Below are positions 16,954 through 40,703 of a DNA stretch of 64,000 nucleotides, piece by piece. Made by a program: the position numbers and the translations under genes. The DNA lies in contig CBDBZN010000006.1 of NCBI GenBank assembly GCA_965213575.1, positions 106,297 through 170,296 on the forward strand, given 5' to 3'. Position 1 is the stretch's first letter; each line of letters begins with the position of its first letter. The notes beneath the pieces are model-generated. The model was not told the DNA's origin, ran no database searches, and saw only the letters and a program-made list of their open reading frames with translations. Source of the stretch: Chitinophagales bacterium (GTDB lineage Bacteria > Bacteroidota > Bacteroidia > Chitinophagales > JAUHXS01).

Positions 16954-16999
16954 TCACCCGAAGGGGTGAAGGAAACCAAGTTATCACCACCTAATATTG
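16954..16999 (+). promoter_or_regulatory. Putative LuxR operator plus variant -7 box, unit 2
   Basis: TCACCC-GAAG-GGGTGA (16954-16969), 22 nt, TAATATTG (16992-16999). Confidence 0.7.
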
Positions 17000-17025
17000 T
17001 AACGCAAATTTTAAATAAACACATC

Positions 17026-17271
17026 ATGAATAGAATTTTTACTCTTATTACTACCGGATTAATAAGCTTAACACTTACACTGGGTTTTGCTCAACAATTT
17101 AATGAAACACAAAAAATAACCGGTACAGGATTTGGACCGGCAAACACATCCTATTTTGGAACTAGCGTAGCTATTTCAGGGGATTATACCATTGTGGGAG
17201 CACCGGGATATGATTACTTCAGTACTTTAAATACCGGAGCAGCGTATATTCATGAAAAAAAACCATTTTAA
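17026..17271 (+). CDS. N-terminal fragment (signal peptide plus first FG-GAP blade) of the giant protein, cut off by frameshift at A8
   Basis: MNRIFTLITTGLISLTLTLGFAQQ...YFGTSVAISGDYTIVGAPG...GAAYIHEK, then stop after A8 at 17255-17262. Confidence 0.85.
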   Translation: MNRIFTLITTGLISLTLTLGFAQQFNETQKITGTGFGPANTSYFGTSVAISGDYTIVGAPGYDYFSTLNTGAAYIHEKKPF

Positions 17272-20200
17272 TGAATGGCAATTAGCAGAATTTTTAAGGC
17301 CTTCCAACTTAAGTGCTGATGATAGATTTGGTGCACAAGTAGCCATATCTGGGGATTATGCTGTGGTGACAGCTCCTGAACATTCAAAAGATGCATCCGG
17401 CAACAATAGTTTAAATGATGCAGGAGCAGCATATATTTATGAGCGAGATGGTACCGGTGATTGGAATATGGTACAAAAGATTGTGGCTTCCGATCGTGCT
17501 TCAGGAGAGTTTTTTGGAGAAGCACTTGCATTAGACGGGGATAGGATTATAATTGGCTCATATCTTGCAGATGCTGTTTATATATTTGAGCGTAATGGTT
17601 CTGGAGTTTGGATAGAAGAGCAAATATTATTATCGAATGATATAGTAGGGGGCGATTTCTTCGGTTTTTCAGTAGCTATAAATGGCGATTTTGCCGTAGT
17701 AGGAGCAAGTCGAGAAAATGCTACATTGTCAGGATTTAGTTCAGTAAGTAGTGCAGGGTCAGCTTATATATTTGAACGAAACGGATCAGGAGTTTGGAAT
17801 CAAATACAAAAAATAGTGGCTTCAGACAGAGAATTGAATGATGAGTTTGGAACAAGCGTAGCGATTGATGGGGATTACCTAATAGTAGGAGCAACACAGG
17901 AAGATCATAATACAGCGGGTCTTGATTTTAGAAATAGAGCCGGTTCTGCTTATATATTTGAAAAGGATGGTTCAGGTACGTGGAATGAAGTACAAAAAGT
18001 CACAGAATTTCTTAGAGCAGCAGGTTCAGAATTTGGACATTCTGTTTCGCTAAAAGGAGATAGAGTAATTGTGACAGAAGCTTCTCTTTATGCAGGGGCA
18101 TCTGTATTTGAACGAGATGGATCAGATAATTGGAACTATCAAGAAAAATTGATCAATGAAGGCTACACTTATAATGATGCATCTCAGAGCCCCGTGGCTT
18201 TATCTAGCGAGGGAATGGCTATTGTTGGTATCAATTTAGAAGGAGAAGACGAATTCAGTAATAGAACTTTTGAAGGAGCGGCATATATTTATACCTATTG
18301 CGAGCCAACTTCTTCTACTATTAACCTCACTGTTTGCGAGCCTTACTTAGCCCCCTCACAAACACAAACATTTACTGTTTCAGGAAATTATACAGATGTT
18401 ATTCCAAATACTAGGGGGTGTGATAGTACCATCTCAATTAACCTTATCGTGAATCAAAACCCACCGACTATTAATCCGGCTGGTCCTTTAGTAATCTGCT
18501 CGGGAATTAATGAAACTCTATCTATCCCTGCCGTAGGAGGGGCAAGCTATTGTTATTTTAAAAATGAACAATGGGATAATGTGGGAAGCAGTGTTTCCAG
18601 TGGTGTAGGTCAATATACTACCTTGACTTTTGATGTAAATGATATACCATATGTGGTATTTAGAGATGAAGATGAAAATTTCACGCCGAGCGTTAAAAAA
18701 TTTGATGGTAATAATTGGGTTTTTGTAGGAGCCCCACGTAGTATTGAAATCAACCCGATAGGCAATGATTTGGATATGGCTATAAGCCAGTCAAATACAC
18801 CATATGTAACATATAGAGCGGGCTTCTCTAGTGGTTTGTATAGGGCAACGGTAAAAAGATTTGATGGAACAGATTGGATAAAAATAGGTTCTAATGAAGC
18901 TTCCACTGGTGAGGTGCGTGATGTTAATATAGCGTTTGGCGAATATGAAACGCCCTATATCGCATATAAAGATGTAGACAATGGAGACAAAGCAACTGTA
19001 ATGAAATACGAAGCCGGTTTCTGGGAACCTGTAGGGAATATTGCTTTTAGCTCCGGATCAATAACCGGCCTAAGCTTAGTAGTAAATAATAATAATGTAC
19101 CTTATGTAGCTTTTTCTGATGACAACAACAGTAATAAAGCCACCGTGATGAAGTATAATGGTACTACCTGGGTTAACGTTGGTGCTGCGGGTTTTACTTC
19201 AGGTGCTTCTTATGTTAATAAACTTGCACTTAATAATTCCGGCACTTTACATATGGCTTCTTATGATGTAGCGAATGGTAATAAAGCAACGGTCTATAAA
19301 TTCAACGGCAGTAGTTGGGTTACTGTTGGCACTGCGGGTTTTTCAGCAGGTATGGCCAATGATATTGACTTTGGCATAAATGAAGCAGATGAGCTATATG
19401 TTGCCTATCGAGATAATGCAAATAGCAATAAACTTACCGTAATGACTTATGATGGAATTGATTGGGTTCCTGCCGGTGATATTGCTTTTAGTGAAGGTGA
19501 TGTAAATACACCAAGCATTGCCTTTGGAGCATATAATAAACCTTATGTTGCCTATAGGAATTTGGCTAACGGAAATAAAATATCAGTAGAGAAAATAGAG
19601 CCTGTTTGTATAGGTAATTCAAATTCTTTAGTGATTAACACAACAGGTACTTATAATGTGGAGGTAACCGCTTCAGATGGCTGTATCAGCTATGCTGCCA
19701 ACTCAGTAACAGTCACCAATGGTACTAATACCACTGCTACTATTTCACCAACGGTTTGTGAAAGCTATACCGTGCCAAGTGGTGATGAAACATATAATAT
19801 CAGTGGAAATTATACAGACACAATTTTAAATACTTCAGGATGTGACAGTGTATTGACCATTAATCTTACTATTTTAAATAGTTCTTCAGCCACTCTAAAC
19901 ATTGATACCTGTGCAGCTTCTTATACTGTGCCAAGTGGCGATAAAACGTATACGGTTAACGGCACCTATTCCGATACAATTTCAAACGCAGTAGGATGCG
20001 ACAGTATCTTAACCATCAATCTTACTATTAATAATAATTCATTTACTAATCAGTATGAAACTACCGTTGATAGTTTTATGTGGTCATCTAACGGCATCAC
20101 TTACTACGAATCAGGAGTGTATACCAACGTTTTGCCGAATAGTGTGGGTTGCGATTCTGTCATTACACTTTACTTAACTATTGAAGAAGAATCTTTTTAT

Positions 20201-23200
20201 AATGAAATACAAAAGATTGTAGCGGCTGATAGAACAGCAGACGATAATTTTGGACAAGCCGTAGATGTGGATGGATCATTTGCAATTGTTGGTGCACATA
20301 GAGATGATTATTTCTCAGGTGGATTCAAAACGGATGTAGGATCAGCTTATATCTTTGAAAAAGGGTTAGATGGAACTTGGACTCAAGCCCAGAAATTAAC
20401 TCCTTCTGATGTACCTACAAATACCGATTACTTCGGCTATTCAGTTGCTATTTCAGGAAACTATGCAGTGATAGGAGCTTTTTTAGAAGATGAAGGGGCT
20501 ACAGGCTTTGGAACAGTTAATGATGCGGGTTCGGCTTATGTTTTTGAAAGAGATGTGTTTTCTAATACGTGGAGCCAAACGGCTAAAATTGTGGCTTTTG
20601 ATAGAGCTACAGGTGATTACTTTGGCTCGTCAGTTGATATATATGGCGACTATATAGTAGTTGGAGCTCCGTCAGAAGATGAAGATGCAGGTGGAGGAAA
20701 TACCCTGTCAGGTGCAGGTTCTGTATATATCTTTAAACGATCAGGTGCTAATTGGAACTTTACTACTAAATTAGTTCATTCAGATAGAGATGCAAGTGAT
20801 GGATTTGGTGCTGAATTGTCTTTATTTGCAAACAAATTAATTGTTGGTGTTTCTGGTCAAGATTTGGATGCATCCGGTGGTAACTCTCTGACAAGTGCAG
20901 GTGCAGCATATATTTTTGAACGCGATGGGTTAGACAATTGGAGCGAAATGCAAAAATTGGTAGCTAGTGAGCGTAAAAGCTCTGACTTTTTCGGGGCTTC
21001 GGTAAGCATTTCCGATTCTTTCGCCGTTGTGGGAGCCTCCGGGGAAGATGAAGATGCCAGTGGAGGAAATACATTATCTAGTGCAGGTGCACTATATACT
21101 TTTAAACTAAGTGCTTCCAATGTATGGTCTCAAACTCAAAAACTAGTTGCTTCTGATAGAGCAGCGTTTGATGTATTGGGTAAATCTGTAAAGATTGAAG
21201 GTGATTGGATTCTTGCAGGTGTTCCTTTTGAAGATCACGATACCTCCGGATTAAATCAGTTATCAAGTTCCGGATCTGTATATGTATTCAATAAAGATAT
21301 TTTAGGTGCTTGGAGTGAAACTCAAAAATTAGTTGCATCCGATAGAGCCATTAATGATAATTATGGGTTCCCGGTTGCCATATCCGGTGCCTACTTATTC
21401 TCAGCAGCTAAGTTAGAAGATGAAGATGAAAACGATGCCAATACCAAAACGGATGCGGGCTCAGTTTATATTTTAGGGAGATGCGGAACAGCTTTCTCTT
21501 TCATCAATGAAACGGCATGTAATTTTTATATCAGCCCTTCCGGGAAAAAGTTTAACACTAATGGTATTTATGAAGATACTGTTACCACACAATTAGGTTG
21601 TGATAGTATTATTACAATAACACTAGATATTTTAAATAATACATTCAGCCCTAGCCCAATTACGGTTTCATCTTGTTATCAATATACGTGGCCATTAAAT
21701 GGCTTAACTTATACAACCAGCGGCACGTATAAAACAGCTTTAACAAATAGTATGGGTTGTGATTCTATAATTACTTTAGATTTAACTATAACAAGTGATG
21801 AAATTCCTTTTGAGCAAATAACTAGTTTTTCAGATAGTACAGCGTATGACTACCTCGGTTCATCCGTTGCAATTGATGGTGAATTTATGGTGGCAGGTGC
21901 CCCGGGAGAAGATCAGGATGTCAATGGGAATAATACAATAAATGGAGCAGGGTCTGCCTTCATGTATCAAAAAGGGTTGACAGGGGAATGGGAGTTTGCC
22001 CAAAAGATTGTTGCTTCTGATAGAGCAGCAAATGACGAGTTTGGAACAAGTGTAGATATTCATGGAGATTATATGATCGTGGGTGTTCCATTCGAAGATC
22101 ATGATGAAGCAGGAGGTAGCTTTATGACTTCTGCTGGATCAGCTTATATTTTTGAAAAAGATGGAAGTGGTAATTGGAGTCAAGTGCAAAAGATTGTGTC
22201 GGCTGATAGGGCTATTAATGATCAGTTTGGAATTTCTGTTGCTATCTACGGCAACTATGCTTTTGTTGGGGCAACCGGACAAGGTTATGACGAAAATGGA
22301 GGTAATTTTTTAAGCTTGGCAGGAGCTGCTTACATCTTTGAACGAGATGGAGGGGGTAATTGGACTCAAATCAAAAAGGTAGTTGCTACAGATCGTGTGA
22401 ACAATGATAATTTTGGAGGAGCTATTGATGTATATAAAGACTATGCAATTATAAGTGCAGCCGGACAAGGTTATGACGAAAATGGAGGGAACTTGGTTTT
22501 TGGTGCTGGAGCTGTGTATGCTTATAAATTTGATTCAGAATGGCGAGAATTCCAAAAGATCGTTTCTTCTGAAAGGTTTTTTGGTGACGCTTTCGGAACA
22601 TCTGTATCAATTGCTGGAAACTATTTCGTAGCTAGTGCTAGAGGACAAGATAGGGATGAAAATGGAGGCAATTTTTTAAGCTTGGCAGGAGCTGCCTATA
22701 TTTTTGAATATGATAATACAGGAATATGGAGTGAAATGCAGAAAATTGTGGCTTCCGATAGAGCTGCAAATGATGGATTCGGAAATTCAGTAGCTATTTC
22801 AGGAAACCAAGTGGTGGTGGGTGCCACCAGTGAGGATGAAGATGAAAATGGTAATAATACCTTAAATGCTTCAGGTTCAGCTTATTATTTTGAAACCGAA
22901 GGTACTATTTGGACAGAGAAGAAAAAATTGGTAAGTAACGACCGCGAAATTCAAGATGGATACGGTAGTGCAGTTGCTATATCTGAAGGTACTCTAGCAG
23001 TAGGAGCATCTGGAGATCGGCTGGGATCATTATTGTATGGTGCAGGTGCGGTTTATATATTAGACAGAGTTACTCCTCAAAGTAATATTACTGAAGTAGC
23101 TTGTGGTTCATACACCACTCCTTCCGGTAATCAGACCTATTCAGCTAGCGGTATTTATACAGATATCCTACCAAGTGCATCGGGTTGCGATAGTGTCATT

Positions 23201-26200
23201 ATTATTGACCTTACTATTAATAATAACTCATTTAACACATTAAATGTAGATGCATGCGATAGTTATACAGTTCCTTCCGGAGATGAGACATATACTGCGA
23301 GCGGAACATATATGGATACTATACCTAATGCAGTTGGGTGCGATAGCATACTGACAATCAACTTAAATTACCTGGGTAATAGCTCTTCTTCTTTTGTCTC
23401 TGTTACAGAATGTGATGAGTATATTTTCAATGGAGAAATATATGCGACAACTGGAGTTTATGATATCGTAATTCCTAACTCAGCAGGGTGTGATAGTAAT
23501 ATTACTTTAGATTTAACTATAAACTATAGTAATGCCACCTATGTTGAAGCAGTTAAGGCTGTTGCCTCAGACCGTGCTATCGATGATGAATTTGGGCATT
23601 CCGTAGCAATAAGCGGACAATATGCGGTAGTTGGAGCAAGGTATGAAGACGAGGATGAAAGTGGTAACAATACGCTATCCACCGCTGGGTCAGTATATAT
23701 ATTTAAGCAAGATGTAAACGGAGACTGGAATGAAGTCCAAAAAATAGTCGCTTCTGATCGTGCCACTGGAGATAACTTTGGTCAAGATGTGGCTATTGAT
23801 GGAGACTATATAGTTGTTGGTGCGTCTTTTGAAGGATCGCCTAAACCAGGTGCTGCATATATCTTCCAAAAAGACGGAGGCGGTATTTGGAACGAGGTTC
23901 AAAAACTTCAAGTTTCTGGTGAGTTTAATTATGCTGAATTTGGACATTCGGTAGATATAGATAATGATTTAATAGTAGTGGGTGCGAGATATGCAGGACT
24001 AGACGCTGGAGGTGCCAATTCAATGACCTCTGCAGGTGCTGCTTATGTATTCAAAAGAGATGGTGGTGGTACATGGAGTGAAGTTCAAAAGCTTGTTGCT
24101 TCTGACAGGGCTAATTTTGATAATCTTGGTACAGACGTTACTATATCTCAAGATCGCATAGCAGTTGGTGGACCATTCAATGATTTGGATGAAAATGGTT
24201 TAAATTCATTGTCAAACTCGGGAGGTGTTTATATTTTCGAAGAAGATGGTGGTGGCACATGGACTCAAATTCAAAAAGTAGTGGCTTCTGATAGAGATAA
24301 TGGGGATAACTTTGGATATTCACTTTCGGTAAGTGGTAATACTTTGCTAGTAGGTGCATACAATGAAAAAGAAGATCAGCTAGGAGGTAATACATTGAAT
24401 GCAGCAGGTTCGGCATATATTTTTGAAAGAGATGGCGGAGGCATTTGGGCTCAAACACAAAAGGTTGTAGCTGAAGATAGAGCAAGTAATGACTATTTTG
24501 GTTATAGCGTGAGTATGTCAGGCAGTTTCGGATTAATTGGTGCATACCGAAGTAAGCGTGATGCAGAAGGCTTAAACGCTTTTTCTTCAGCTGGAGCGGC
24601 ATATATTTTTAAGAAAAATATTGATGGTGGATGGTCTCAGTTGGAGAAAGTTGTTCCATCTGATAGAGCTAGTAATGATGAGTTTGCTAAATCAGTTGCC
24701 ATTTCGGGAGCTAATTTTATAGCCGGAGCAAGCTTTGAGGATGAAAATGAAACTGGTACAAGTATGCTCAGTAAAGCAGGCTCTGTTTATTTCTTTGAGC
24801 AAGAATTAATTGCAGTTCCCGTAGCTGTAAGTGCTTGTGAAAGCTATACCGTACCATCAGGAGATGAAACGTATACGGTGAGTGGGATGTATATGGATAC
24901 GATCCAAACTATTTCAGGTTGTGATAGTTTGCTCGTAATTGATGTTACGATCAATAATCATTCTTCTGCTACTATTAATCCATCTGTTTGTGGTAGCTAT
25001 ACTGTTCCATCAGGAGATGAAATTTATACAGTTAGTGGTACCTATAATGATACCATTGCTAATACTGCAGGGTGTGATAGCTTGTTAACGATTAACTTAA
25101 CCATTAATGGCAACAGCTCTTCTACAGAAGATACAACTGTATGTGATAGCTACACTTGGAATGGAGGCACGTATACTGTTTCCGGAACATATTATGACAC
25201 GATTCCTACCGGAGCGGCTTGTGATAGCTTCTTGACATTAAACCTGGTAGTTAATTATAGCAGTTCTTCCACAGAAACAATTACCGCTTGTGATAGCTAT
25301 ATGTGGAATGGAATGACTTTTAACTCATCCGGAACTTATAGAGATACTATTCCAAATGGAGTGAATTGTGATAGCTTTATGACATTAAATCTGACGATTA
25401 ACAATAGCACCTCAGCTTCAATTAGTCCTACTGCTTGTGAATCTTATACCGTTCCATCAGGAGATGAAACTTATTCGGTAAGCGGAATGTATTCTGATAC
25501 GATACCTAATGCTGCAAACTGTGATAGTATTATTACGATTAATCTTACTATAAACAATAACAGTTCCTCATCAGAGACAGAAACCGCTTGTGAAAGTTAT
25601 ATATGGAATGGCATGACTTTCACCTCAAGTGGGACTTATTTTGACACCATACCGAATACTATTAGTTGCGATAGTTTTATGACGTTGAATCTGACGATTA
25701 ATAATAATAGTTCTTCGACTGAAACGGTTTCTGCTTGCGGAAATTATGATTGGAACGGAACAAACTATACTGTAAGTGGTGTGTATCGAGATACGATACC
25801 GAATGCTATAAACTGTGATAGTTTCATGACACTAAACTTAACGATAAGTGATATCACGACAGCTACCATTAGTCCAGCCGCTTGTGAAACATACACTGTT
25901 CCTTCCGGTGATGAAACATATATAGTTAGTGGTAACTATATGGACACGATTCTTAATGTTGGAGGATGTGATAGTATTATCACCATTAACTTGACGATTA
26001 ATAATCATACTTCTGCAACGCTTAATGAAAGTGTATGTAACATCTATACCGTTCCTTCCGGCGATGAAACATATACGATGGATGGAACTTACTTGGATAC
26101 CATAGCAAATACTGCAGGTTGTGATAGTATCTTAACGATCAACTTAACCATACTGGGAACGAGTTCTTCGACAGAAGATACGATGGTTTGTGATAGTTAT

Positions 26201-27580
26201 ATTTGGAATGGGAATACCTATACCGTTTCCGGTACTTATTACGATACCATCCCGACAGGAGCGGCTTGTGATAGCTTCTTGACATTGAACTTAGTAGTAA
26301 ATAATTCTACTAATGATACGGTTGAAGTGGTTGTTTGTCCGGGAACGGATTATGTATTACCGGGAGGAGCAACTGTAAATACAGCAGGTTTCTATAGAGA
26401 TACATTGATGACGGCTAGTAACTGTGATAGTATTATCAATACAGACTTTAAATTTGCTCCAATATATGATGAAGATGTTGATGCTGCTATTTGTCAAGGT
26501 GAAAGTTATACCTTGCCAAGTGGATTAGTCGTAAACACAGGAGGGGTTTATCGTGATACGTTATTGACGAATAATAATTGCGATAGCATCACCAATACTA
26601 CGTTGATTGTGAACCCAACTTATATCATTAATATTTCTGATACTGTTTGTCAAGGGCAAGGGTATGAGCTGCCGAGAGGAGAGGTTGTGTTTATTGATAG
26701 TATTTATACTGATACATTAATGACTGAAGCAGGTTGTGATAGTATCATTATTGTAGATCTTAGTGTAGACTCATCCGGATTGGTTACGAGTGAATTTATG
26801 TCATTCTGTGAAGGTGAAACCTACACATTACCATGGGGAGACGTAATTGATTCAGCAGGTATCTTTATTGATCCGACTATTGTGGGTTGTGATACCTTTA
26901 CCCAATATGTAGTTACTGTTAATCCGGTGTATAACATCATCGATTTTATTGTCATCTGTGCAGGTGACAGTATTGAATTGTTTGGTGAGTTTGTTTCAAA
27001 GCCTGATATTTATGAGGCTTCATTTACTACTTCAGATGGGTGCGATAGTAATATAACGATTGAAGTAATATATGATAATTTCGCTGGAGCTGATCAGGCC
27101 CTTACGATCTGCGACACCTTTACTAATTTCGATCTTTCGACAGTAATTACTGCTGATGCCGATACCAATGGTATTTGGATTGATGTAAATGGTACAGGAG
27201 CAATTAGCGGATCTATGTTTGATGCTTCAGGAGTTACAGCCGGGACTTATACAGTTAAATATGCGACGCCTGCCACAGGAAGTTGTGAGAATGATACGGC
27301 TACCTTTACAGTAACTGTTCAGCCTTGTCTAAATTCCGGTATTGTTGCTGTTGAAATACCAAATATTGAGGTATTCCCTAATCCTGCTAAAGACAAGCTG
27401 AATATTAAAAGTAATACTCAGATGAATATCCTTTCAGTATATAATACGTTAGGTCAGCTTTATCTGGAATACAATGCAGTTCCACGTACGTTAGATGTAT
27501 CTAATTGGATTCCGGGAGTGTATTTTATAGAAATAACTCATGCTTCAGGTGTTCAGCAGATTAAGGTTGTAAAACATTAG
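17252..27580 (+). CDS. Giant FG-GAP multi-propeller surface protein with Cys-pair stalk repeats and T9SS type A CTD (body of frameshifted gene)
   Basis: Many FG.SVAI.G...VGA...GSAYIFE blades in four clusters, one different propeller, ~24 C..Y...G.Y.DT....GCDS units, C-terminal VFPNPA...GVYFI. Confidence 0.9.
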   Translation: MKKNHFNEWQLAEFLRPSNLSADDRFGAQVAISGDYAVVTAPEHSKDASGNNSLNDAGAAYIYERDGTGDWNMVQKIVASDRASGEFFGEALALDGDRIIIGSYLADAVYIFERNGSGVWIEEQILLSNDIVGGDFFGFSVAINGDFAVVGASRENATLSGFSSVSSAGSAYIFERNGSGVWNQIQKIVASDRELNDEFGTSVAIDGDYLIVGATQEDHNTAGLDFRNRAGSAYIFEKDGSGTWNEVQKVTEFLRAAGSEFGHSVSLKGDRVIVTEASLYAGASVFERDGSDNWNYQEKLINEGYTYNDASQSPVALSSEGMAIVGINLEGEDEFSNRTFEGAAYIYTYCEPTSSTINLTVCEPYLAPSQTQTFTVSGNYTDVIPNTRGCDSTISINLIVNQNPPTINPAGPLVICSGINETLSIPAVGGASYCYFKNEQWDNVGSSVSSGVGQYTTLTFDVNDIPYVVFRDEDENFTPSVKKFDGNNWVFVGAPRSIEINPIGNDLDMAISQSNTPYVTYRAGFSSGLYRATVKRFDGTDWIKIGSNEASTGEVRDVNIAFGEYETPYIAYKDVDNGDKATVMKYEAGFWEPVGNIAFSSGSITGLSLVVNNNNVPYVAFSDDNNSNKATVMKYNGTTWVNVGAAGFTSGASYVNKLALNNSGTLHMASYDVANGNKATVYKFNGSSWVTVGTAGFSAGMANDIDFGINEADELYVAYRDNANSNKLTVMTYDGIDWVPAGDIAFSEGDVNTPSIAFGAYNKPYVAYRNLANGNKISVEKIEPVCIGNSNSLVINTTGTYNVEVTASDGCISYAANSVTVTNGTNTTATISPTVCESYTVPSGDETYNISGNYTDTILNTSGCDSVLTINLTILNSSSATLNIDTCAASYTVPSGDKTYTVNGTYSDTISNAVGCDSILTINLTINNNSFTNQYETTVDSFMWSSNGITYYESGVYTNVLPNSVGCDSVITLYLTIEEESFYNEIQKIVAADRTADDNFGQAVDVDGSFAIVGAHRDDYFSGGFKTDVGSAYIFEKGLDGTWTQAQKLTPSDVPTNTDYFGYSVAISGNYAVIGAFLEDEGATGFGTVNDAGSAYVFERDVFSNTWSQTAKIVAFDRATGDYFGSSVDIYGDYIVVGAPSEDEDAGGGNTLSGAGSVYIFKRSGANWNFTTKLVHSDRDASDGFGAELSLFANKLIVGVSGQDLDASGGNSLTSAGAAYIFERDGLDNWSEMQKLVASERKSSDFFGASVSISDSFAVVGASGEDEDASGGNTLSSAGALYTFKLSASNVWSQTQKLVASDRAAFDVLGKSVKIEGDWILAGVPFEDHDTSGLNQLSSSGSVYVFNKDILGAWSETQKLVASDRAINDNYGFPVAISGAYLFSAAKLEDEDENDANTKTDAGSVYILGRCGTAFSFINETACNFYISPSGKKFNTNGIYEDTVTTQLGCDSIITITLDILNNTFSPSPITVSSCYQYTWPLNGLTYTTSGTYKTALTNSMGCDSIITLDLTITSDEIPFEQITSFSDSTAYDYLGSSVAIDGEFMVAGAPGEDQDVNGNNTINGAGSAFMYQKGLTGEWEFAQKIVASDRAANDEFGTSVDIHGDYMIVGVPFEDHDEAGGSFMTSAGSAYIFEKDGSGNWSQVQKIVSADRAINDQFGISVAIYGNYAFVGATGQGYDENGGNFLSLAGAAYIFERDGGGNWTQIKKVVATDRVNNDNFGGAIDVYKDYAIISAAGQGYDENGGNLVFGAGAVYAYKFDSEWREFQKIVSSERFFGDAFGTSVSIAGNYFVASARGQDRDENGGNFLSLAGAAYIFEYDNTGIWSEMQKIVASDRAANDGFGNSVAISGNQVVVGATSEDEDENGNNTLNASGSAYYFETEGTIWTEKKKLVSNDREIQDGYGSAVAISEGTLAVGASGDRLGSLLYGAGAVYILDRVTPQSNITEVACGSYTTPSGNQTYSASGIYTDILPSASGCDSVIIIDLTINNNSFNTLNVDACDSYTVPSGDETYTASGTYMDTIPNAVGCDSILTINLNYLGNSSSSFVSVTECDEYIFNGEIYATTGVYDIVIPNSAGCDSNITLDLTINYSNATYVEAVKAVASDRAIDDEFGHSVAISGQYAVVGARYEDEDESGNNTLSTAGSVYIFKQDVNGDWNEVQKIVASDRATGDNFGQDVAIDGDYIVVGASFEGSPKPGAAYIFQKDGGGIWNEVQKLQVSGEFNYAEFGHSVDIDNDLIVVGARYAGLDAGGANSMTSAGAAYVFKRDGGGTWSEVQKLVASDRANFDNLGTDVTISQDRIAVGGPFNDLDENGLNSLSNSGGVYIFEEDGGGTWTQIQKVVASDRDNGDNFGYSLSVSGNTLLVGAYNEKEDQLGGNTLNAAGSAYIFERDGGGIWAQTQKVVAEDRASNDYFGYSVSMSGSFGLIGAYRSKRDAEGLNAFSSAGAAYIFKKNIDGGWSQLEKVVPSDRASNDEFAKSVAISGANFIAGASFEDENETGTSMLSKAGSVYFFEQELIAVPVAVSACESYTVPSGDETYTVSGMYMDTIQTISGCDSLLVIDVTINNHSSATINPSVCGSYTVPSGDEIYTVSGTYNDTIANTAGCDSLLTINLTINGNSSSTEDTTVCDSYTWNGGTYTVSGTYYDTIPTGAACDSFLTLNLVVNYSSSSTETITACDSYMWNGMTFNSSGTYRDTIPNGVNCDSFMTLNLTINNSTSASISPTACESYTVPSGDETYSVSGMYSDTIPNAANCDSIITINLTINNNSSSSETETACESYIWNGMTFTSSGTYFDTIPNTISCDSFMTLNLTINNNSSSTETVSACGNYDWNGTNYTVSGVYRDTIPNAINCDSFMTLNLTISDITTATISPAACETYTVPSGDETYIVSGNYMDTILNVGGCDSIITINLTINNHTSATLNESVCNIYTVPSGDETYTMDGTYLDTIANTAGCDSILTINLTILGTSSSTEDTMVCDSYIWNGNTYTVSGTYYDTIPTGAACDSFLTLNLVVNNSTNDTVEVVVCPGTDYVLPGGATVNTAGFYRDTLMTASNCDSIINTDFKFAPIYDEDVDAAICQGESYTLPSGLVVNTGGVYRDTLLTNNNCDSITNTTLIVNPTYIINISDTVCQGQGYELPRGEVVFIDSIYTDTLMTEAGCDSIIIVDLSVDSSGLVTSEFMSFCEGETYTLPWGDVIDSAGIFIDPTIVGCDTFTQYVVTVNPVYNIIDFIVICAGDSIELFGEFVSKPDIYEASFTTSDGCDSNITIEVIYDNFAGADQALTICDTFTNFDLSTVITADADTNGIWIDVNGTGAISGSMFDASGVTAGTYTVKYATPATGSCENDTATFTVTVQPCLNSGIVAVEIPNIEVFPNPAKDKLNIKSNTQMNILSVYNTLGQLYLEYNAVPRTLDVSNWIPGVYFIEITHASGVQQIKVVKH

Positions 27581-27602
27581 TTTAGTACACACACAAACTA
27601 CG

Positions 27603-27631
27603 AAGCCTCTTAGATTTCTAAGGGGCTTTTT
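27603..27631 (+). terminator. Rho-independent terminator
   Basis: AAGCCTCTTAGA-TT-TCTAAGGGGCTT followed by T run. Confidence 0.8.
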
Positions 27632-27692
27632 GGTTTTATAAGCTCCAATCAATAGGTGCTTTTCCTTGTTTTATTAGCAATTCGTTAGTTTT

Positions 27693-27717
27693 AAGATCTG
27701 CCGATAGAAGAAGGTAC
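27693..27717 (+). repeat. Right copy of 25-bp direct repeat
   Basis: AAGATCTGCCGATAGAagAAGGTAC, 23/25 identical to 14299-14323. Confidence 0.75.
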
Positions 27718-27820
27718 CTTGAATAGTTTATATCAGATCAAGTTGGACTTTATATGAACTAGTCATAGTCGACAAGGATTTAAATACTTGCATTATCCTA
27801 TTGCGAATCAGTTAATTAAC

Positions 27821-29212
27821 TTATTCATTATCCACCGGTTCAGCAGCAGGCTCTTCTTCAAGAGATTTTTTATCGTATTTACGTTTATTAGTGCTCTTGC
27901 CACCATCCATTTTCGGGTCAAATAGTCCCATTTCCGGCTTACGTTTGCTTCTTTTCCTTACTTTATTAGCTTTATAACCAAATATTTCTTTTTTACCTGT
28001 ATTATTTGATACTTTATAAGACTGTCCGGCTGTTTCATATTCCTTTGCTGTTCTAGCATCTACTTCCGTTGGTTCCATATTTCTCATATTCACAGGATCT
28101 CCAAAAATGCCACCCTTTTTATTTCTACTGACTTTGTAAGATTGTCCGCTCGTCTCGTATTCTTTCGCAACACTAGCTTTAACTTGTGTCGGCTGTCTAT
28201 TGTTTCCACTAACATCTACACCGAAAATTCCTTTCTTTTGTTGTTTGTCAACCTTATAGGATTGCCCGGCTGTTTCGTATTGCTTAGCAATACTTGCTGA
28301 TACTTTGCCGGGTTTTGTGGGAGCAGTATTACCCGTTTCTCCAAAAATCCCTTGTTTTCCTACACCGGTAGTATAATAAGATTGAGTGGAAGTTTCATAT
28401 TCTTTAGCAGTAGACTTTTTAACTGTATTTGGCGTTCTATCTATAGGCTTATTACTTTCTCCAAAAATTCCCTTTTTACTGGCCTCATTTACATAATAGG
28501 ATTGCCCTCCGCCTTCATACTCTTTTGCTATTTTTGCATCAACTTTATTAGGCGTAGTATTTACCTTGCCGGCATGTTCACCAAAAATCCCTTGCTTTTT
28601 TATTTCTTTTACATGATAAGATTGGCTTGCTGTTTCATATTGTTTCGCCACCTTCGCAGCTATCGTCGGAGGGTCTTTATCAGGATTTTTGACTTCTACG
28701 CCGAAGATGCCACTTTTTTTAGCCTTTTCTACTTTATAAGATTGAGTACTTGTTTCATATTTTTTTGCAATAGAGGGATTTATCTCACCGCCTTCAACCT
28801 CAACCTTTCCTATGTTGCCAAAAATCCCTTGCTTTAGTTCTTTTTCAACTTTATAAGACTGTCCGGCTGTTTCATGCTCTTTCGCAACTTTCGCTTTAAC
28901 TGGTACCGGTTCCATATAAGGATATTTGACTTGTGAACCGAAAATTCCATTTTTTTCTGCAGGCTTAGCTTTAAAAGATTGAGTGGAAGTTTCATGCTCT
29001 TTTGCAGTGCTTGCATTAGTTTTGGTAGGATTTTTAATGCCGGTTGGGTTAAAGGTTTTTAATTTGGCCGGTTTAGTGCCCGTTTTTATCTTTGAGCCTT
29101 TATCTCTATTCGTACTGTTAGGAATTGGATTTTGATCTACCTGAGCAAATATCAAACATGAAAGAGCTGTATAGAATAGGAAAAATATAATTAAAAGGTA
29201 TTTTTTACTCAT
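27821..29212 (-). CDS. Exported Lys-rich protein with nine ~40-aa tandem repeats
   Basis: Signal peptide (cleavage near IFA-Q); repeat AK.YET..QSY.V.....K.GIFG........P..V.A..; 120-nt periodicity visible in DNA. Confidence 0.85.
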   Translation of the reverse strand: MSKKYLLIIFFLFYTALSCLIFAQVDQNPIPNSTNRDKGSKIKTGTKPAKLKTFNPTGIKNPTKTNASTAKEHETSTQSFKAKPAEKNGIFGSQVKYPYMEPVPVKAKVAKEHETAGQSYKVEKELKQGIFGNIGKVEVEGGEINPSIAKKYETSTQSYKVEKAKKSGIFGVEVKNPDKDPPTIAAKVAKQYETASQSYHVKEIKKQGIFGEHAGKVNTTPNKVDAKIAKEYEGGGQSYYVNEASKKGIFGESNKPIDRTPNTVKKSTAKEYETSTQSYYTTGVGKQGIFGETGNTAPTKPGKVSASIAKQYETAGQSYKVDKQQKKGIFGVDVSGNNRQPTQVKASVAKEYETSGQSYKVSRNKKGGIFGDPVNMRNMEPTEVDARTAKEYETAGQSYKVSNNTGKKEIFGYKANKVRKRSKRKPEMGLFDPKMDGGKSTNKRKYDKKSLEEEPAAEPVDNE

Positions 29213-29500
29213 GACTTACAGCCTAAAATAAGGTTTTTTAAACAATATTACAATTTTATGTTTCGAGCGCCTTAGTATATAATTTTTCTTGTAAAACTTT
29301 ATGTATTTACATTATATTAAAATATTGTTGTGTCAATTAGCTACAACACATGCTATGTGTGGATTTCAGTTGAAAATGTTAATAAAAAAATCTTATAAAT
29401 TTAATGCATTGCAACTCGCTGATATATAGTATGTTATAAATTACTTATATTTAAAAAACATCCACACTCCTCGCTAACTGGGCCTTTCAAGAAAAAAAAA

Positions 29501-29531
29501 TTTGCATTTTTACAAAAACATGCTAAATTTG
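29501..29531 (+). promoter_or_regulatory. Canonical Bacteroidota promoter of HU gene
   Basis: TTTG-N19-TAAATTTG. Confidence 0.7.
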
Positions 29532-29579
29532 CTACAGTTATTTAAAAACTATTTATTAACAATTAAAAATTAATTAGTT

Positions 29580-29852
29580 ATGAACAAAGGAGAATTAGTC
29601 AATCAAATTTCTGATGATGCAGGAATCAGCAAAGCTCAAGCAACAAAAGCTTTAGATTCATTTATTGATAGCACTGTAAAAACAGTAAAAAAAGGTGATA
29701 AAGTTACTTTAGTAGGATTTGGTACTTTTTCTGCAGCTAACAGAGCAGCTAGAAAAGGTAGAAACCCACAAACTGGTAAAGAAATCAATATCCCTGCTAA
29801 GAATGTGGTAAAATTCAAAGTTGGAAAAGATTTTGCTAGCAAAGTAAAATAA
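29580..29852 (+). CDS. hup: DNA-binding protein HU
   Basis: MNKGELV...VTLVGFGTF...RAARKGRNPQTG..I.IPAK. Confidence 0.97.
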   Translation: MNKGELVNQISDDAGISKAQATKALDSFIDSTVKTVKKGDKVTLVGFGTFSAANRAARKGRNPQTGKEINIPAKNVVKFKVGKDFASKVK

Positions 29853-29872
29853 TTATTTCTTTCTGATTTTTT

Positions 29873-29903
29873 AAAGAGGTTGTCCTAAAGGCAGCCTCTT
29901 TTT
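29873..29903 (+). terminator. Intrinsic terminator between HU and pdxH, probably bidirectional
   Basis: AAAGAGGTTGTC-CTAAA-GGCAGCCTCTTTTT. Confidence 0.8.
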
Positions 29904-38964: not shown

Positions 38965-39789
38965 ATGGAAGGATTTCGCCCGGGAGGTTATAGTTTATTG
39001 CCTGTAGCTGTCAAAAACCTATTGATCGTTAATGCATTATTTTTTGTTGCTACCATTGTGTTTGCCAGCTCATTTGGCAGTGATTTAACACAAAAATTGG
39101 GCCTATTCTATGTAGGTTCAGAGTATTTTAAACCGTATCAATTCATATCTCATTTATTCATGCATGGAAGCTTTATGCATATTTTTTCTAATATGTTTGC
39201 TTTATGGATGTTTGGCAGCGTATTAGAAAACATGTGGGGTCCGAAGCGGTTTTTGATTTATTATTTGATCACAGGGTTAGGAGCAGCGGTTCTTCATTCA
39301 TTAATTTTAGCTTGGGATATGCATAATCTTCAAGAAGCGGCAAATATGTTCCTTAATGCTTCTACCGTTGAAAACTTTAAAATTTTTATAAATGATGAGG
39401 TTACCGAGCCTTTCCTTAAAGCATTTAATGACTTGGCAATACAATGGGAAACAAATTCTGCCAGTAACAGCCTTCAAAATCAAGCTGAAGGATATGTGAA
39501 TGAACTAGTTCAACTCAAGGAAAATATCCCGACTGTTGGAGCATCCGGAGCAGTATTTGGCGTTTTACTAGCCTTTGGTATGCTTTTCCCGAATACTAAG
39601 ATCTACTTATATTTTTTATTACCCATCAAAGCTAAATATTTTGTGATATTATATGGCTTATTTGAATTATTTGCCGGCATTAGAAATAGTGCGGGTGATA
39701 ATGTTGCTCACTGGGCACATTTAGGCGGTATGATTTTTGGATATTTTTTAATAAAATATTGGAATACCAAACGAAACAAGTTTTATTAA
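38965..39789 (+). CDS. Rhomboid intramembrane serine protease
   Basis: FMHG...HI..NM, GASGA, AHWAHLGG. Confidence 0.95.
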   Translation: MEGFRPGGYSLLPVAVKNLLIVNALFFVATIVFASSFGSDLTQKLGLFYVGSEYFKPYQFISHLFMHGSFMHIFSNMFALWMFGSVLENMWGPKRFLIYYLITGLGAAVLHSLILAWDMHNLQEAANMFLNASTVENFKIFINDEVTEPFLKAFNDLAIQWETNSASNSLQNQAEGYVNELVQLKENIPTVGASGAVFGVLLAFGMLFPNTKIYLYFLLPIKAKYFVILYGLFELFAGIRNSAGDNVAHWAHLGGMIFGYFLIKYWNTKRNKFY

Positions 39790-40703
39790 TGTATAGGAAG
39801 CAATCTATTTGGGCCGAGATAAAAAGGCAATATGCTCAGCCCGGAGATATGATTTTCAAACTTATCATTGTAAATGTAGCCGTTTTTTTAGTTGTTAATA
39901 TCATCAAGTTATTTTGCACACTTTTTATTACGGATCCTTTATTATATGCCACCATTTATCACGATTATTTTTTGAAATGGCTAGCTGTCCCTTCTGATTT
40001 GGGACAACTTATCTATAAACCATGGACATTATTGACTTACATGTTTTTACATGAAGGCTTTTTCCATTTGTTATTTAACATGCTATGGCTTTATTGGATT
40101 GGCCGAATTTTACAAGATCTGATAGGATTTAAAAAAATATTACCCATCTACCTGATGGGTGGTTTGTTGGGAGGCGTAATCTATATACTGAGCTATAATC
40201 TATTTCCCGGGCTACAAGCATATGCCGCAGGTAGTATTTTGCTGGGAGCCTCAGCCGGGGTTTTAGCAATTGTATTTGCAGCAGCTACTTTGACTCCCGA
40301 TTATCTTATTCATTTAATTTTGATAGGGCCGGTAAAGCTAAAATATATTGCATTATTTACATTAATTCTAGATGTAATAAGTATAGGAAATTTAAGTAAT
40401 GCCGGTGGTCATTTAGCGCATTTAGGAGGTGCCTTATTTGGTTTTTTATACATTAAGCAACTTCAAAATGGAAATGATTGGGCTAAAACACCAAATAAAA
40501 TAATAGACTGGACAATGAGTCTTTTTGATAAAAAACCTAAAATGAGCTATCAAAAATCATCTGATAAAAAGCCTAAACCCTCTGTTATTTCAAAATCTAA
40601 TCAAGCTAGAGTAGATGATATTTTAGATAAAATAGCAGAAGCCGGTTATGACAGCCTTTCTAAGGAAGAAAAAGATTTTTTATTTAAATACAGCAAAAAC
40701 TAA
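39789..40703 (+). CDS. Rhomboid protease with C-terminal DUF6576-like tail
   Basis: GASAG, GHLAHLGG, DDILDKI...GYDSLS.EEK; ATG overlaps upstream stop (TAATG). Confidence 0.93.
   Translation: MYRKQSIWAEIKRQYAQPGDMIFKLIIVNVAVFLVVNIIKLFCTLFITDPLLYATIYHDYFLKWLAVPSDLGQLIYKPWTLLTYMFLHEGFFHLLFNMLWLYWIGRILQDLIGFKKILPIYLMGGLLGGVIYILSYNLFPGLQAYAAGSILLGASAGVLAIVFAAATLTPDYLIHLILIGPVKLKYIALFTLILDVISIGNLSNAGGHLAHLGGALFGFLYIKQLQNGNDWAKTPNKIIDWTMSLFDKKPKMSYQKSSDKKPKPSVISKSNQARVDDILDKIAEAGYDSLSKEEKDFLFKYSKN

Follow-up and report, generated by a model that had tools for sequence, protein, structure and literature searches.

A gene encoding a tandem-repeat protein of 463 amino acids is found on the minus strand of the window, by which we mean the whole stretch of 64,000 nucleotides that was analysed. 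It stands divergently to an HU (DNABII) gene, and the two are separated by a short intergenic region. The locus can be divided into the following parts.

27821..29212, minus strand: whole coding sequence, 463 aa, ATG start, stop codon at 27821-27823 (ORF list and translation)
29144..29212, minus strand: residues 1-23, signal peptide with a basic n-region, a hydrophobic core of 18 residues and a predicted SPI cleavage site between A and Q (A-Q site)
29018..29143, minus strand: residues 24-65, N-terminal linker of the mature protein, from the alignment with the orthologue
28898..29017, minus strand: repeat 1, residues 66-105, 40 aa, 65% identical to repeat 1 of the sister species (orthologous)
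28781..28897, minus strand: repeat 2, residues 106-144, 39 aa
28661..28780, minus strand: repeat 3, residues 145-184, 40 aa
28541..28660, minus strand: repeat 4, residues 185-224, 40 aa
28421..28540, minus strand: repeat 5, residues 225-264, 40 aa
28301..28420, minus strand: repeat 6, residues 265-304, 40 aa
28181..28300, minus strand: repeat 7, residues 305-344, 40 aa
28061..28180, minus strand: repeat 8, residues 345-384, 40 aa
27941..28060, minus strand: repeat 9, residues 385-424, 40 aa, 82% identical to the last repeat of the orthologue
27824..27940, minus strand: C-terminal tail, residues 425-463, with an M-G-L-F-D-P motif, a second basic cluster (K-R-K-Y-D-K-K) and an acidic end
29213..29579, no strand: divergent intergenic region of 367 bp between the repeat gene and the HU gene
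29580..29852, plus strand: HU (DNABII) gene, PF00216, E 2.6e-33

The repeat gene is native in composition, with a GC content (0.37) and a GC3 (0.26) that resemble those of its neighbours. A preliminary description of the sequence had called the protein rich in Lys and poor in hydrophobic residues, and it does contain 73 Lys among its 463 residues, with a GRAVY of -1.10 for the mature chain. The latter (440 residues) carries 33 Tyr or Phe, 81 Lys or Arg and 52 acidic residues, for a net charge of +29 and a pI of 9.6; 30% of its residues are charged, 15 dibasic pairs are present, and there is neither Trp nor Cys. Behind the cleavage site, the linker begins with a short conserved Q-N-P-x-P-N-S sequence and continues with variable sequence rich in Lys, Thr and Pro. 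In repeat 9, a basic cluster takes the place of the second half of the unit and runs into the tail. An open reading frame on the opposite strand, 28352-28837 (+), is a shadow of the repeat frame.

Repeat architecture and selection

The nine units described previously, of 40 aa except for one of 39, were recovered from residues 66-424 by several measures. Successive QS[YF] motifs are spaced by 40, 39, 40, 40, 40, 40, 40 and 40 residues, and successive IFG motifs by 40, 39, 40, 40, 40, 40, 40 and 41. The self-identity of the protein peaks at offsets of 40, 80 and 120 residues (0.33, 0.29 and 0.24), as against about 0.11-0.16 elsewhere. A profile built from 22 repeats, that is, the nine of the window protein and 13 of its orthologue in a sister species, gave nine matches on the genome of the organism, all within the repeat gene (E 1.9e-21 to 2.4e-15). 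The back-translated pattern A-K-x2-E-T-x2-Q-S-[YF]-x8-G-I-F-G matched seven times in the window, where 0.00 matches were expected from 100 shuffles.

The AK..E..QS and IFG residues had been called near-invariant. Across both species, A5, K6, E9, Q13 and S14 are invariant in all 22 repeats, while T10, K22, F26 and G27 are kept in at least 90% of them. The K-x-G-I-F-G block thus recurs in the repeats beside the invariant A-K, E and Q-S positions. Hydrophobic or aromatic residues are semi-conserved at positions 4, 8, 15, 17, 25, 26 and 40, and Pro37 is present in 17 of the 22 repeats. Unit length varies very little in the two species (40 residues in 17 of 22 repeats, 39 in three and 41 in two), and copy number differs by whole units, nine in the window protein against 13 in the sister species. 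Conservation within the first motif (motif A) has a period of about four residues, with a peak at 85-95 degrees and nothing at 170; the same signal was reached by 186 of 10,000 shuffles. A face that is conserved and polar would suit a recognition element better than a hydrophobic core.

Tandem Repeats Finder detected no DNA-level array across the gene, and the matches to the back-translated pattern differ in their synonymous codons, which indicates that the units are old and have diverged at the DNA level. Mean identity between repeats is 0.46 and 0.44 within the two proteins and 0.44 between the species. Judged from these values, the repeats are old and have not undergone homogenisation.

The sister-species orthologue is intact (620 aa, 13 repeats). 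Over the whole gene, comparison of the two gave a pS of 0.74, with synonymous sites saturated, and a pN of 0.29, values that mark a true protein-coding gene on which purifying selection acts. The constraint is unevenly distributed, pN being low in the tail (0.074) and the GIFG block (0.083), intermediate in motif A (0.19) and high in the spacers (0.46), so that the earlier proposal of an old, selected periodicity was borne out. The tail is 90% identical between the species despite a pS of 0.60 in that class, the last 55 residues are 91% identical, and the tail with the basic cluster that precedes it forms the most conserved part of the protein. At the other end, identity falls to 34% in the linker (pN 0.44) and to just 28% in the signal segment. 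Since only two orthologues are available, the conservation of the motifs, like that of the linkage to HU described below, comes from a single species comparison.

Export, predicted disorder and distribution

In Bacteroidetes, Gln is described as the +1 residue of SPI sites, the so-called Q-rule (PMC5837995, PMC10653852). The N-terminal segment of the repeat protein appears to match a Sec/SPI signal of this kind: a basic n-region precedes the hydrophobic h-region, and the predicted cut has a small residue on its -1 side and Gln on its +1 side. KD19 hydropathy reaches its maximum, 2.41, in this segment and does not exceed 0.20 beyond residue 30. The hydrophobic stretch ends with F-A before the Gln in the window protein and with I-A before the Gln in the orthologue, and a hydrophobic segment followed by A-Q was also found in four of the seven other window proteins inspected. 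Positive charge is located N-terminal to the hydrophobic segment, whereas the first 12 mature residues contain no basic residue. The preliminary description had reported a signal peptide accompanied by neither a lipobox nor a T9SS CTD. The first and last parts agree with our results: no T9SS CTD model (Por_Secre_tail, CHU_C, TIGR CTD models) matched the repeat protein at E <=10, the same library detecting such domains in five other window proteins. The statement on the lipobox stood in effect only, as Cys19 does occur in a loosely lipobox-like context. This residue lies within the hydrophobic core, with four hydrophobic residues directly behind it, and the orthologue has no Cys anywhere; without a conserved lipobox Cys, the protein is probably not a lipoprotein. 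We infer Sec export, an SPI cut before Gln and retention in the cell envelope, where the predicted site would be the periplasm or a loose association with the surface, since no lipid anchor, T9SS CTD or barrel is present. The Bacteroidetes O-glycosylation motif is D-[ST]-[AILVMT]; neither orthologue has a site of this type.

AlphaFold2 found no fold for the whole protein (pLDDT 31.7, pTM 0.13, with an alignment of two rows) or for a fragment of three repeats (pLDDT 50.9, pTM 0.12, with 18 non-independent rows), short helices at positions ~2-10 appearing in the latter. The composition of the protein is on the disordered side of the charge-hydropathy boundary. From the two together we infer that the protein would be largely disordered on its own, but the low AlphaFold2 confidence could reflect the shallow alignment (two orthologues, or overlapping repeat windows) instead of disorder. 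A complex prediction with three copies of the three-repeat fragment reached a score of 0.05, the mark being 0.42, which speaks neither for nor against self-association.

The failure to recognise the family at first reading was confirmed by every library searched. Using phmmer, no match to the repeat protein was obtained among 1.84 billion representative proteins; homologue searches with the whole protein and, at longer lengths, with the repeat profile were blank, and the ESM Atlas held no relative. No PDB sequence matched the protein or the repeat profile at E <=10, NCBIfam gave just a chance match of 17.7 bits (cut-off 85.2 bits), and nothing was found under E 0.03 in PHROGs. Searches of Pfam with the whole protein and with repeat windows stayed below threshold, so that the repeat matches no described family there: weak matches to Nucleoporin_FG (PF13634) occurred in four of 18 three-repeat windows (E 0.038-0.19), with a best score of 13 bits against a gathering threshold of 32.2 bits. 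In metagenome scans, none of 281 pattern matches obtained with an alignment of the C-terminal region was confirmed, and a degenerate repeat pattern gave no match. A scan of genome contigs returned only the sister-species MAG; its patterns were narrow (repeat 1), and distant relatives could escape them. A profile of the tail matched strongly in only two (G000 and G001) of 401 genomes of the order. Among everything searched, the gene is confined to its own Bacteroidia genus, in two species. Literature searches on GIFG and on lysine-rich tandem repeats in Bacteroidetes turned up no description of the family, and none of the papers retrieved with GIFG dealt with a bacterial repeat protein. The sequence family is therefore new, with no relative in the libraries searched or among the 1.84 billion representatives.

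The divergent arrangement with HU had also been pointed out beforehand, and the PF00216 match confirms the identity of that gene. When 13 ORFs of the orthologous locus were compared with the window by tblastn, only HU and the repeat gene were recovered; HU is the sole neighbour conserved between the two species. The other genes nearby encode PdxH, MazG, a biotin-carrier-like protein and an M1 peptidase, and the 28 flanking ORFs that were scanned with Pfam, reaching some 27 kb upstream of the gene and 16 kb downstream, yielded housekeeping, T9SS cargo and restriction-modification genes. None of these neighbours suggests a binding partner for the repeat protein. The intergenic region presumably holds both promoters, and when it is aligned with its counterpart in the sister species, conserved blocks stand out beside the HU start and in mid-region. 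Rfam gave nothing in 27400-29900, and a sigma-70-type scan, whose model does not cover Bacteroidota promoters, remained at chance level (6 found, 8.2 expected). The sole terminator-like hairpin, at 27602-27629 (+), belongs to the giant gene upstream.

We also surveyed 48 HU loci outside the genus, taking about 1.5 kb of flank per locus and the best HU copy per genome. A comparable neighbour was present at one of them only, in a genome of a related family (G008).

L053:6876-7991, minus strand: P0002 of G008, an unannotated orphan

P0002 has the same position and orientation as the window gene: it points away from an adjacent HU gene, which falls into the same HU clade (support 98/91). Like the window protein, it has an N-terminal hydrophobic segment ending at A-Q, strictly periodic tandem repeats and a strongly basic composition, and its C-terminal end likewise shows a basic cluster, M-x-L-F-(x)-P-K and then K-Y-(x)-K-K. 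It differs in being made of 13 units of 21 residues, with 39% Lys plus Arg and just five acidic residues. The two sequences could not be related by BLASTP (E 1.5) or by hhalign (probability 0.3% for the tail and 0.05% for the repeats).

Possible modes of action

The reading that we tentatively favour, at less than even confidence, is that the protein would form an extended scaffold of the cell envelope, multivalent by virtue of its linear motifs and docked via its almost invariant C-terminal tail; of the ideas put forward beforehand, it is the one of a ruler or multivalent binder that the analysis favours. Each unit would contain two constrained short linear motifs, I-A-K-E-Y-E-T-x-x-Q-S-Y-K-V and K-x-G-I-F-G-E, and the spacers, free in sequence and fixed in length, would keep these motifs at a spacing of 40 residues. 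Each of the repeated motifs may take up one copy of an envelope ligand that is itself repeating or multivalent, and would probably fold as it binds. The tail, basic and then acidic, would act as a docking peptide that fixes the scaffold or tether to one partner, and gain or loss of whole units (9 versus 13) would tune valency or reach.

This mode of action can be likened to that of other bacterial disordered repeat binders. The repeats of FnBPA are acidic. FnBPA is described as binding several ligand molecules through 11 intrinsically disordered repeats, which are 27-39 aa long and differ from one another (PMC2891841). The fibronectin-binding repeats of FnBPA and SfbI, which form a tandem beta-zipper, share with the window protein export, about ten non-identical disordered repeats of similar size, short conserved motifs in a variable context and a varying repeat number; multivalent binding would be common to both by analogy. 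The window protein nevertheless has no sequence relationship to them (no match to a fibronectin-binding-repeat Pfam family at E <=10, with the whole protein or three-repeat windows), lacks a folded N-terminal domain and an LPXTG anchor, and is distinguished by its exact 40-residue period, its invariant C-terminal tail and its basic character. The likeness may thus indicate a possible way of working, not membership.

Linkers of the TolA/TonB type have an N-terminal hydrophobic segment, a long hydrophilic stretch of Lys, Glu and Pro and a functionally important C-terminal end. The window protein has the same three-part layout as these periplasm-spanning linkers, but it matches neither TonB_C nor TolA, its hydrophobic segment is poorly conserved and carries an SPI-type A-Q site, and its C-terminal element is a charged peptide of 50 residues, not a folded domain.

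If the linear-motif scaffold were correct, the gene would provide a clean natural case of an envelope protein working via short linear motifs at exact spacing, with selection visible on the motifs, the spacer length and the docking tail while the sequence of the spacers is left free. Such proteins would escape both family-based annotation and structure prediction, and would form a blind spot in the interpretation of genomes. The reach of the present case is small (two uncultured species), and its practical importance would be modest unless the HU-linked class proves wider.

The strict length of the supposedly free spacers is unusual for disordered linkers, and a small folded module explains it equally well. 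In that alternative, which we consider doubtful, the 40-residue units would be small folded modules, for example a helix or beta-hairpin with a G-I-F-G turn, stacked into a rigid rod or spacer of the envelope and hidden from AlphaFold2 by the lack of homologues. All 22 repeats, variable part included, indeed measure 39-41 residues, the semi-conserved hydrophobic and aromatic positions and Pro37 would suit such a module, and the motif A pattern is symmetric about positions 11-12 and fits a hairpin as well as a helix; the structure predictions, moreover, rested on only 2 and 18 non-independent rows. On the other hand, the GRAVY of the mature chain and its low hydropathy past the signal indicate that hydrophobic residues are too scarce to build a core, both predictions stayed at a pTM of 0.12-0.13, and no repeat family was found in Pfam or in PDB sequences at E <=10, the sub-threshold Nucleoporin_FG matches aside.

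A self-associating sticker-and-spacer or adhesive matrix protein, in which Y8, Y15, F26 and Lys would drive condensation or adhesion to anionic surfaces (polysaccharide, eDNA, mineral), is unlikely. Three conserved aromatic positions per unit, the many Tyr, Phe, Lys and Arg residues and the weak Nucleoporin_FG matches (best E 0.038) speak for it. The resemblance to nucleoporin GLFG/FG domains, on which the initial suggestion of such a scaffold had been founded, consists of G-[IL]-F-G recurring in hydrophilic low-complexity sequence, and GIFG is reported to substitute for GLFG in engineered Nup98 phases (bioRxiv 10.1101/2022.10.14.512266). The same source characterises cohesive FG domains by a density of one FG per ~12 residues and by an extreme depletion of charge; spacers that are long and charged are described there as anti-cohesive, and Lys, where exposed, as FG-phobic. 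With one FG per 40 residues, a substantial charged fraction where FG domains are near zero, and a high net charge, the window protein, bacterial and exported, lacks these defining traits; it is also rich in Lys and Tyr, which Nup98 domains are reported to select against (same source). Its best Pfam score is far below the cut-off, and sticker-spacer models need neither an exact 40-residue period nor an invariant polar face. The suggestion gained little from the analysis.

Two readings start from the linkage to HU. According to the first, very unlikely in our estimation, the window protein and P0002 would be positional orthologues, hidden members of an extremely fast-evolving group of HU-linked, exported, periodic polycations, each unit reading one unit of an anionic polymer of the envelope or the extracellular space (for instance capsule, glycan strands or eDNA bound by DNABII proteins) and the variable residues 11-12, between the invariant E-T and Q-S, tuning specificity. 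In another version, repeat genes of this type would be born de novo, by unit duplication, in the promoter-proximal space upstream of HU. The second, which is even harder to credit, supposes that the N-terminal segment is an uncleaved anchor and that the basic repeats are cytoplasmic and bind nucleic acid, making a membrane-tethered nucleoid-associated protein that acts with HU. The conservation of HU alone beside the gene, the strongly basic analogue next to an HU gene of the same clade in G008 and the basic clusters in both tails are all compatible with it. However, the charge N-terminal to the hydrophobic segment and the 12 residues behind it that lack any basic residue argue for export, the A-Q site is typical of the exported proteins of this window, and the segment is as poorly conserved as signal peptides are; the protein also contains 52 acidic residues, its pI is just 9.6, and homology to the G008 protein is not demonstrable. 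A TALE-like reading (repeats, a basic NLS-like cluster and an acidic end) and one of the tail as a beta-clamp motif were dropped because they need a cytoplasmic or host-nuclear location, which the signal peptide speaks against.

Bacterial RiPP precursors do not typically carry a Sec/SPI signal. The window protein has a predicted signal of this type, and we regard the proposal, made in the preliminary description, of a multi-core peptide precursor from which nine blocks would be freed by proteolysis at Lys sites, and perhaps modified, as extremely unlikely. The near-identical short blocks split by variable spacers do recall multi-core ribosomal peptide precursors, Lys is frequent around the blocks, and dibasic pairs are plentiful in the mature chain. 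Against this, no ATP-grasp, radical-SAM, lanthipeptide, protease, peptidase-transporter or other maturation gene was found among the 28 flanking ORFs, no dibasic pair occupies a fixed position in the repeat (K22 is the single conserved Lys to be considered), each unit has two separate conserved blocks, and the exact spacer length and the conserved tail would be superfluous.

Finally, a non-functional frame, open by chance in repeat DNA or produced by an assembly artefact, could be imagined for an organism represented by draft assemblies only and a stretch for which no RNA run is listed, but it is almost certainly wrong given the motif-specific constraint with pN far below pS, the intact orthologue, the lack of any DNA-level tandem repeat to collapse or expand in assembly, and a contig from a public run (probably the source sample itself) that spans 27500-29429 at a depth of 2 and covers the gene with 0 differences.

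Periodicity and constraint of the repeat gene

The gene under study lies divergently from the HU (DNABII) gene, and its product, the repeat protein, is organized as follows.

27821-29212, minus strand: repeat-protein coding sequence, ATG start, 463 aa
Residues 1-23: N-terminal segment, basic, then hydrophobic, ending F-A|Q
Residues 24-65: linker, Lys/Thr/Pro-rich and variable
Residues 66-424: nine units in tandem, eight of 40 residues and one of 39
Residues 425-463: charged tail

The ORF coordinates in the preliminary description were exact, and the 40-residue repeats reported there were confirmed by motif spacing, self-identity and profile matches. Successive QS[YF] motifs are separated by 40, 39, 40, 40, 40, 40, 40 and 40 residues and successive IFG motifs by 40, 39, 40, 40, 40, 40, 40 and 41, while self-identity of the protein peaks at offsets 40, 80 and 120. 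A 22-repeat profile found nine matches in the 2.67-Mb genome of the organism (E 1.9e-21 to 2.4e-15), all within the repeat gene, and a degenerate DNA pattern representing the two motifs matched 7 times where 0.00 were expected. This periodicity is far above chance. Tandem Repeats Finder detected no DNA-level array spanning the gene and synonymous codons differ among units, indicating that the units are ancient and that their likeness has been kept at the protein level only.

The sole relative found anywhere belongs to a second species of the same genus (G001), which also appeared among the matches as a MAG under the label 'Bacteroidia bacterium'. This orthologue is an intact ORF of 620 aa with 13 units of 39-41 residues, and is likewise divergent from HU. 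Codon alignment of the two genes gave a pS of 0.74, with synonymous sites saturated, and an overall pN of 0.29. Constraint is sharply structured by region.

Conservation between the repeat protein and its G001 orthologue, by region
K-x-G-I-F-G-E block: 87% amino-acid identity, pN 0.083
C-terminal tail: 90% amino-acid identity, pN 0.074
I-A-K-E-Y-E-T-x-x-Q-S-Y-K-V block: 70% amino-acid identity, pN 0.19
Spacers: 34% amino-acid identity, pN 0.46
Signal segment: 28% amino-acid identity

Mean repeat identity was 0.46 and 0.44 within the two proteins and 0.44 between species; since likeness within a protein is no higher than between species, the repeats have not been homogenized. Orthology is clear for the first unit (65% identity) and the last (82%), inner units are collinear in part, and copy number changes by whole units (9 versus 13). 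In all 22 units of both species A5, K6, E9, Q13 and S14 are invariant; T10, K22, F26 and G27 are kept in 90% or more of them, and Pro37 is present in 17.

Distribution of the family and genes adjoining HU

The family had been called unrecognized, and rightly so. No match was obtained by phmmer among 1,835,955,588 representatives or among PDB sequences at E ≤10, word-indexed protein searches and two metagenome scans yielded no relatives, Pfam, NCBIfam and PHROGs gave sub-threshold noise only, and the ESM Atlas offered no usable match. Of 301 genomes sampled in the order, two encoded the protein, both belonging to its genus; the repeat profile matched 1 of 401 sampled from the phylum, that of the organism itself (G000). 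The tail profile, run on 401 genomes, was convincing in G000 and G001 only, with seven further matches at chance level (E 0.006-0.09). In the whole genomes sampled, the gene is limited to its own genus. Its sequence family is new and is represented by two uncultured species only; the kind of object, a lineage-restricted, exported, low-complexity repeat protein, is familiar.

We surveyed the ORFs upstream of HU at 48 HU loci outside the genus. A comparable divergent gene was present at one of them, in G008, a genome of another family.

L053:6876-7991, minus strand: basic repeat gene of G008, 371 aa, divergent from HU

The G008 protein has a hydrophobic N-terminus ending A|Q, 13 exact 21-residue repeats and 39% Lys+Arg (128 Lys+Arg and 5 acidic residues in 328). 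Its C-terminal end resembles that of the repeat protein, with a basic cluster, then M-x-L-F-(x)-P-K, then K-Y-(x)-K-K. The G008 HU groups with the two HU copies from each of G000 and G001 and with HUs of two further families that have no comparable repeat-gene neighbour; support for this clade is 98/91. Similarity between the two repeat proteins is below statistical detection, and searches for a family or relative of the G008 protein left it an orphan. The likeness is a lead, not evidence of homology.

A T9SS-CTD gene lies 80 nt downstream of the G008 gene. The synteny RecG - HU - family-2 glycosyltransferase is common to this locus and to L034 of G017, in two families; between RecG and HU, G008 carries the basic repeat gene and a T9SS cargo gene, and G017 a gap of about 880 nt without a comparable ORF. 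This arrangement suggests that the basic repeat gene was gained or lost there. In the order, an HU search mostly gave one match per sampled genome; G000 and G001, the two species of the genus, each have a second paralogue (G000:C22:11117-11386 and G001:C14:74795-75064; 76% and 74% identity to the window HU) with ordinary neighbours. At three loci of family f5 (L068, L073 and L074), HU is adjoined by a small, very basic ORF starting M-G-K-G-D-R-R, which we take to resemble ribosomal protein bTHX. It lies just past the HU 3' end, tail-to-tail with HU (convergent), on the same strand in L068 and L073, not in L074. Divergently upstream of HU at all three is a different small ORF with a C-P-A-Y-M motif, whose leader in L073 and L074 is hydrophobic and lipoprotein-like. 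In G139, a lipoprotein-like ORF upstream of HU on the same strand (L071:99-1226, plus strand) has a 24-residue internal period (self-identity 0.31) and a composition unrelated to that of the repeat protein.

Location, fold and possible role of the repeat protein

The N-terminus behaves as a predicted cleavable Sec/SPI signal. Its KD19 hydropathy reaches 2.41, a value never above 0.20 in the remainder of the protein, and the 12 residues after A|Q include no basic residue. Despite its low conservation, the segment terminates in A|Q in both species; this junction, the Bacteroidetes Q-rule as outlined in the accessible parts of PMC5837995 and PMC10653852, also occurs in 4 of 7 other window proteins inspected. 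The only Cys sits within the hydrophobic core and has no counterpart in the orthologue, so it does not form a lipobox. No T9SS CTD was detected in the protein by searches that find CTDs in five neighbouring proteins. The signal peptide without lipobox or CTD noted at first reading therefore holds, and the default expectation is a periplasmic protein or one loosely associated with the envelope.

The mature chain (pI 9.6, GRAVY -1.10, 30% charged residues, net charge +29) has no Trp or Cys and falls on the disordered side of the charge-hydropathy boundary. AlphaFold2 gave pLDDT 31.7 and pTM 0.13 for the whole protein, and 50.9 and 0.12 for three units (18-row alignment of repeat windows), where only short helices at unit positions ~2-10 were modelled. 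As these alignments are shallow, the models support disorder without proving it. In the first block, conservation recurs about every 4 residues (peak at 85-95 degrees, nil at 170 degrees; reached by 186 of 10,000 shuffles), which would fit a helix with a conserved polar face. Around the variable pair 11-12 the pattern also shows symmetry, as in a hairpin, and both forms appear compatible.

We tentatively read the repeat protein as an extended multivalent envelope scaffold, because each unit has two short invariant motifs and spacers of fixed length whose sequence varies freely, whole units are gained or lost, the charged tail is nearly frozen and there is no sign of a hydrophobic core. In this reading the protein would dock through its tail, and every unit would engage a single copy of a ligand that is itself repeating or multivalent, perhaps becoming ordered on it. 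The 11 non-identical disordered repeats of FnBPA (27-39 aa), described in the accessible text of PMC2891841, provide a working precedent. A periodic binder or ruler had been proposed earlier; its general form is favoured here, as a conjecture.

The exact unit length would also suit a small folded module whose units stack into a rod, but the composition of the protein speaks against it and makes it rather unlikely. A self-associating or adhesive sticker-spacer protein is more doubtful still: by the criteria in the accessible part of bioRxiv 10.1101/2022.10.14.512266, the protein matches GLFG domains in neither motif density nor charge, which also weakens the condensate first suggested. HU and the repeat gene are the only genes locally common to both species; an HU-linked nucleoid protein facing the cytoplasm is nevertheless highly improbable for a chain with a signal-like N-terminus. 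About as improbable is the multi-core peptide precursor of the preliminary description, weakened by the lack of peptide-maturation genes among the 28 ORFs scanned around the gene. Lastly, base composition and GC3 match those of the neighbours and a public-run contig, probably from the source sample, reproduces the gene with no differences; next to the regional constraint, a non-functional ORF is scarcely conceivable.

Neighbourhood of the repeat gene

The gene is flanked on one side by a convergent 3442-aa T9SS FG-GAP adhesin and on the other by the divergent HU, followed by PdxH, MazG, a biotin-carrier-like protein and an M1 peptidase. Within the intergenic region (29213-29579), two blocks are kept between G000 and G001, the ~110 nt nearest HU and one in the middle, although the flanking genes are synonymously saturated; both divergent genes may share these blocks as regulatory elements. 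Rfam gave no match in this region.

The adhesin ORF (17252-27580, plus strand) itself lacks a signal peptide; an A|Q-ending one is encoded, together with the first FG-GAP repeat (PF14312, E 1.6e-09), by a 5' ORF in a different frame (16966-17271, plus strand). The two ORFs overlap at nine consecutive A (about 17255-17263). Either sequencing or assembly has introduced a frameshift here, or the giant adhesin gene has a slipped-strand phase-variation site. Elsewhere in the window, 1629-5297 (plus strand) encodes a fused restriction-modification enzyme of 1222 aa, with N-terminal DUF7149 and DUF7814, then an Eco57I/MmeI-type methyltransferase and TaqI_C specificity domain; its GC3 (0.39) is above that of its neighbours. 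Two adjacent rhomboid-family protease genes overlap at 38965-39789 and 39759-40703 (plus strand), the second having a DUF6576 C-terminal end.
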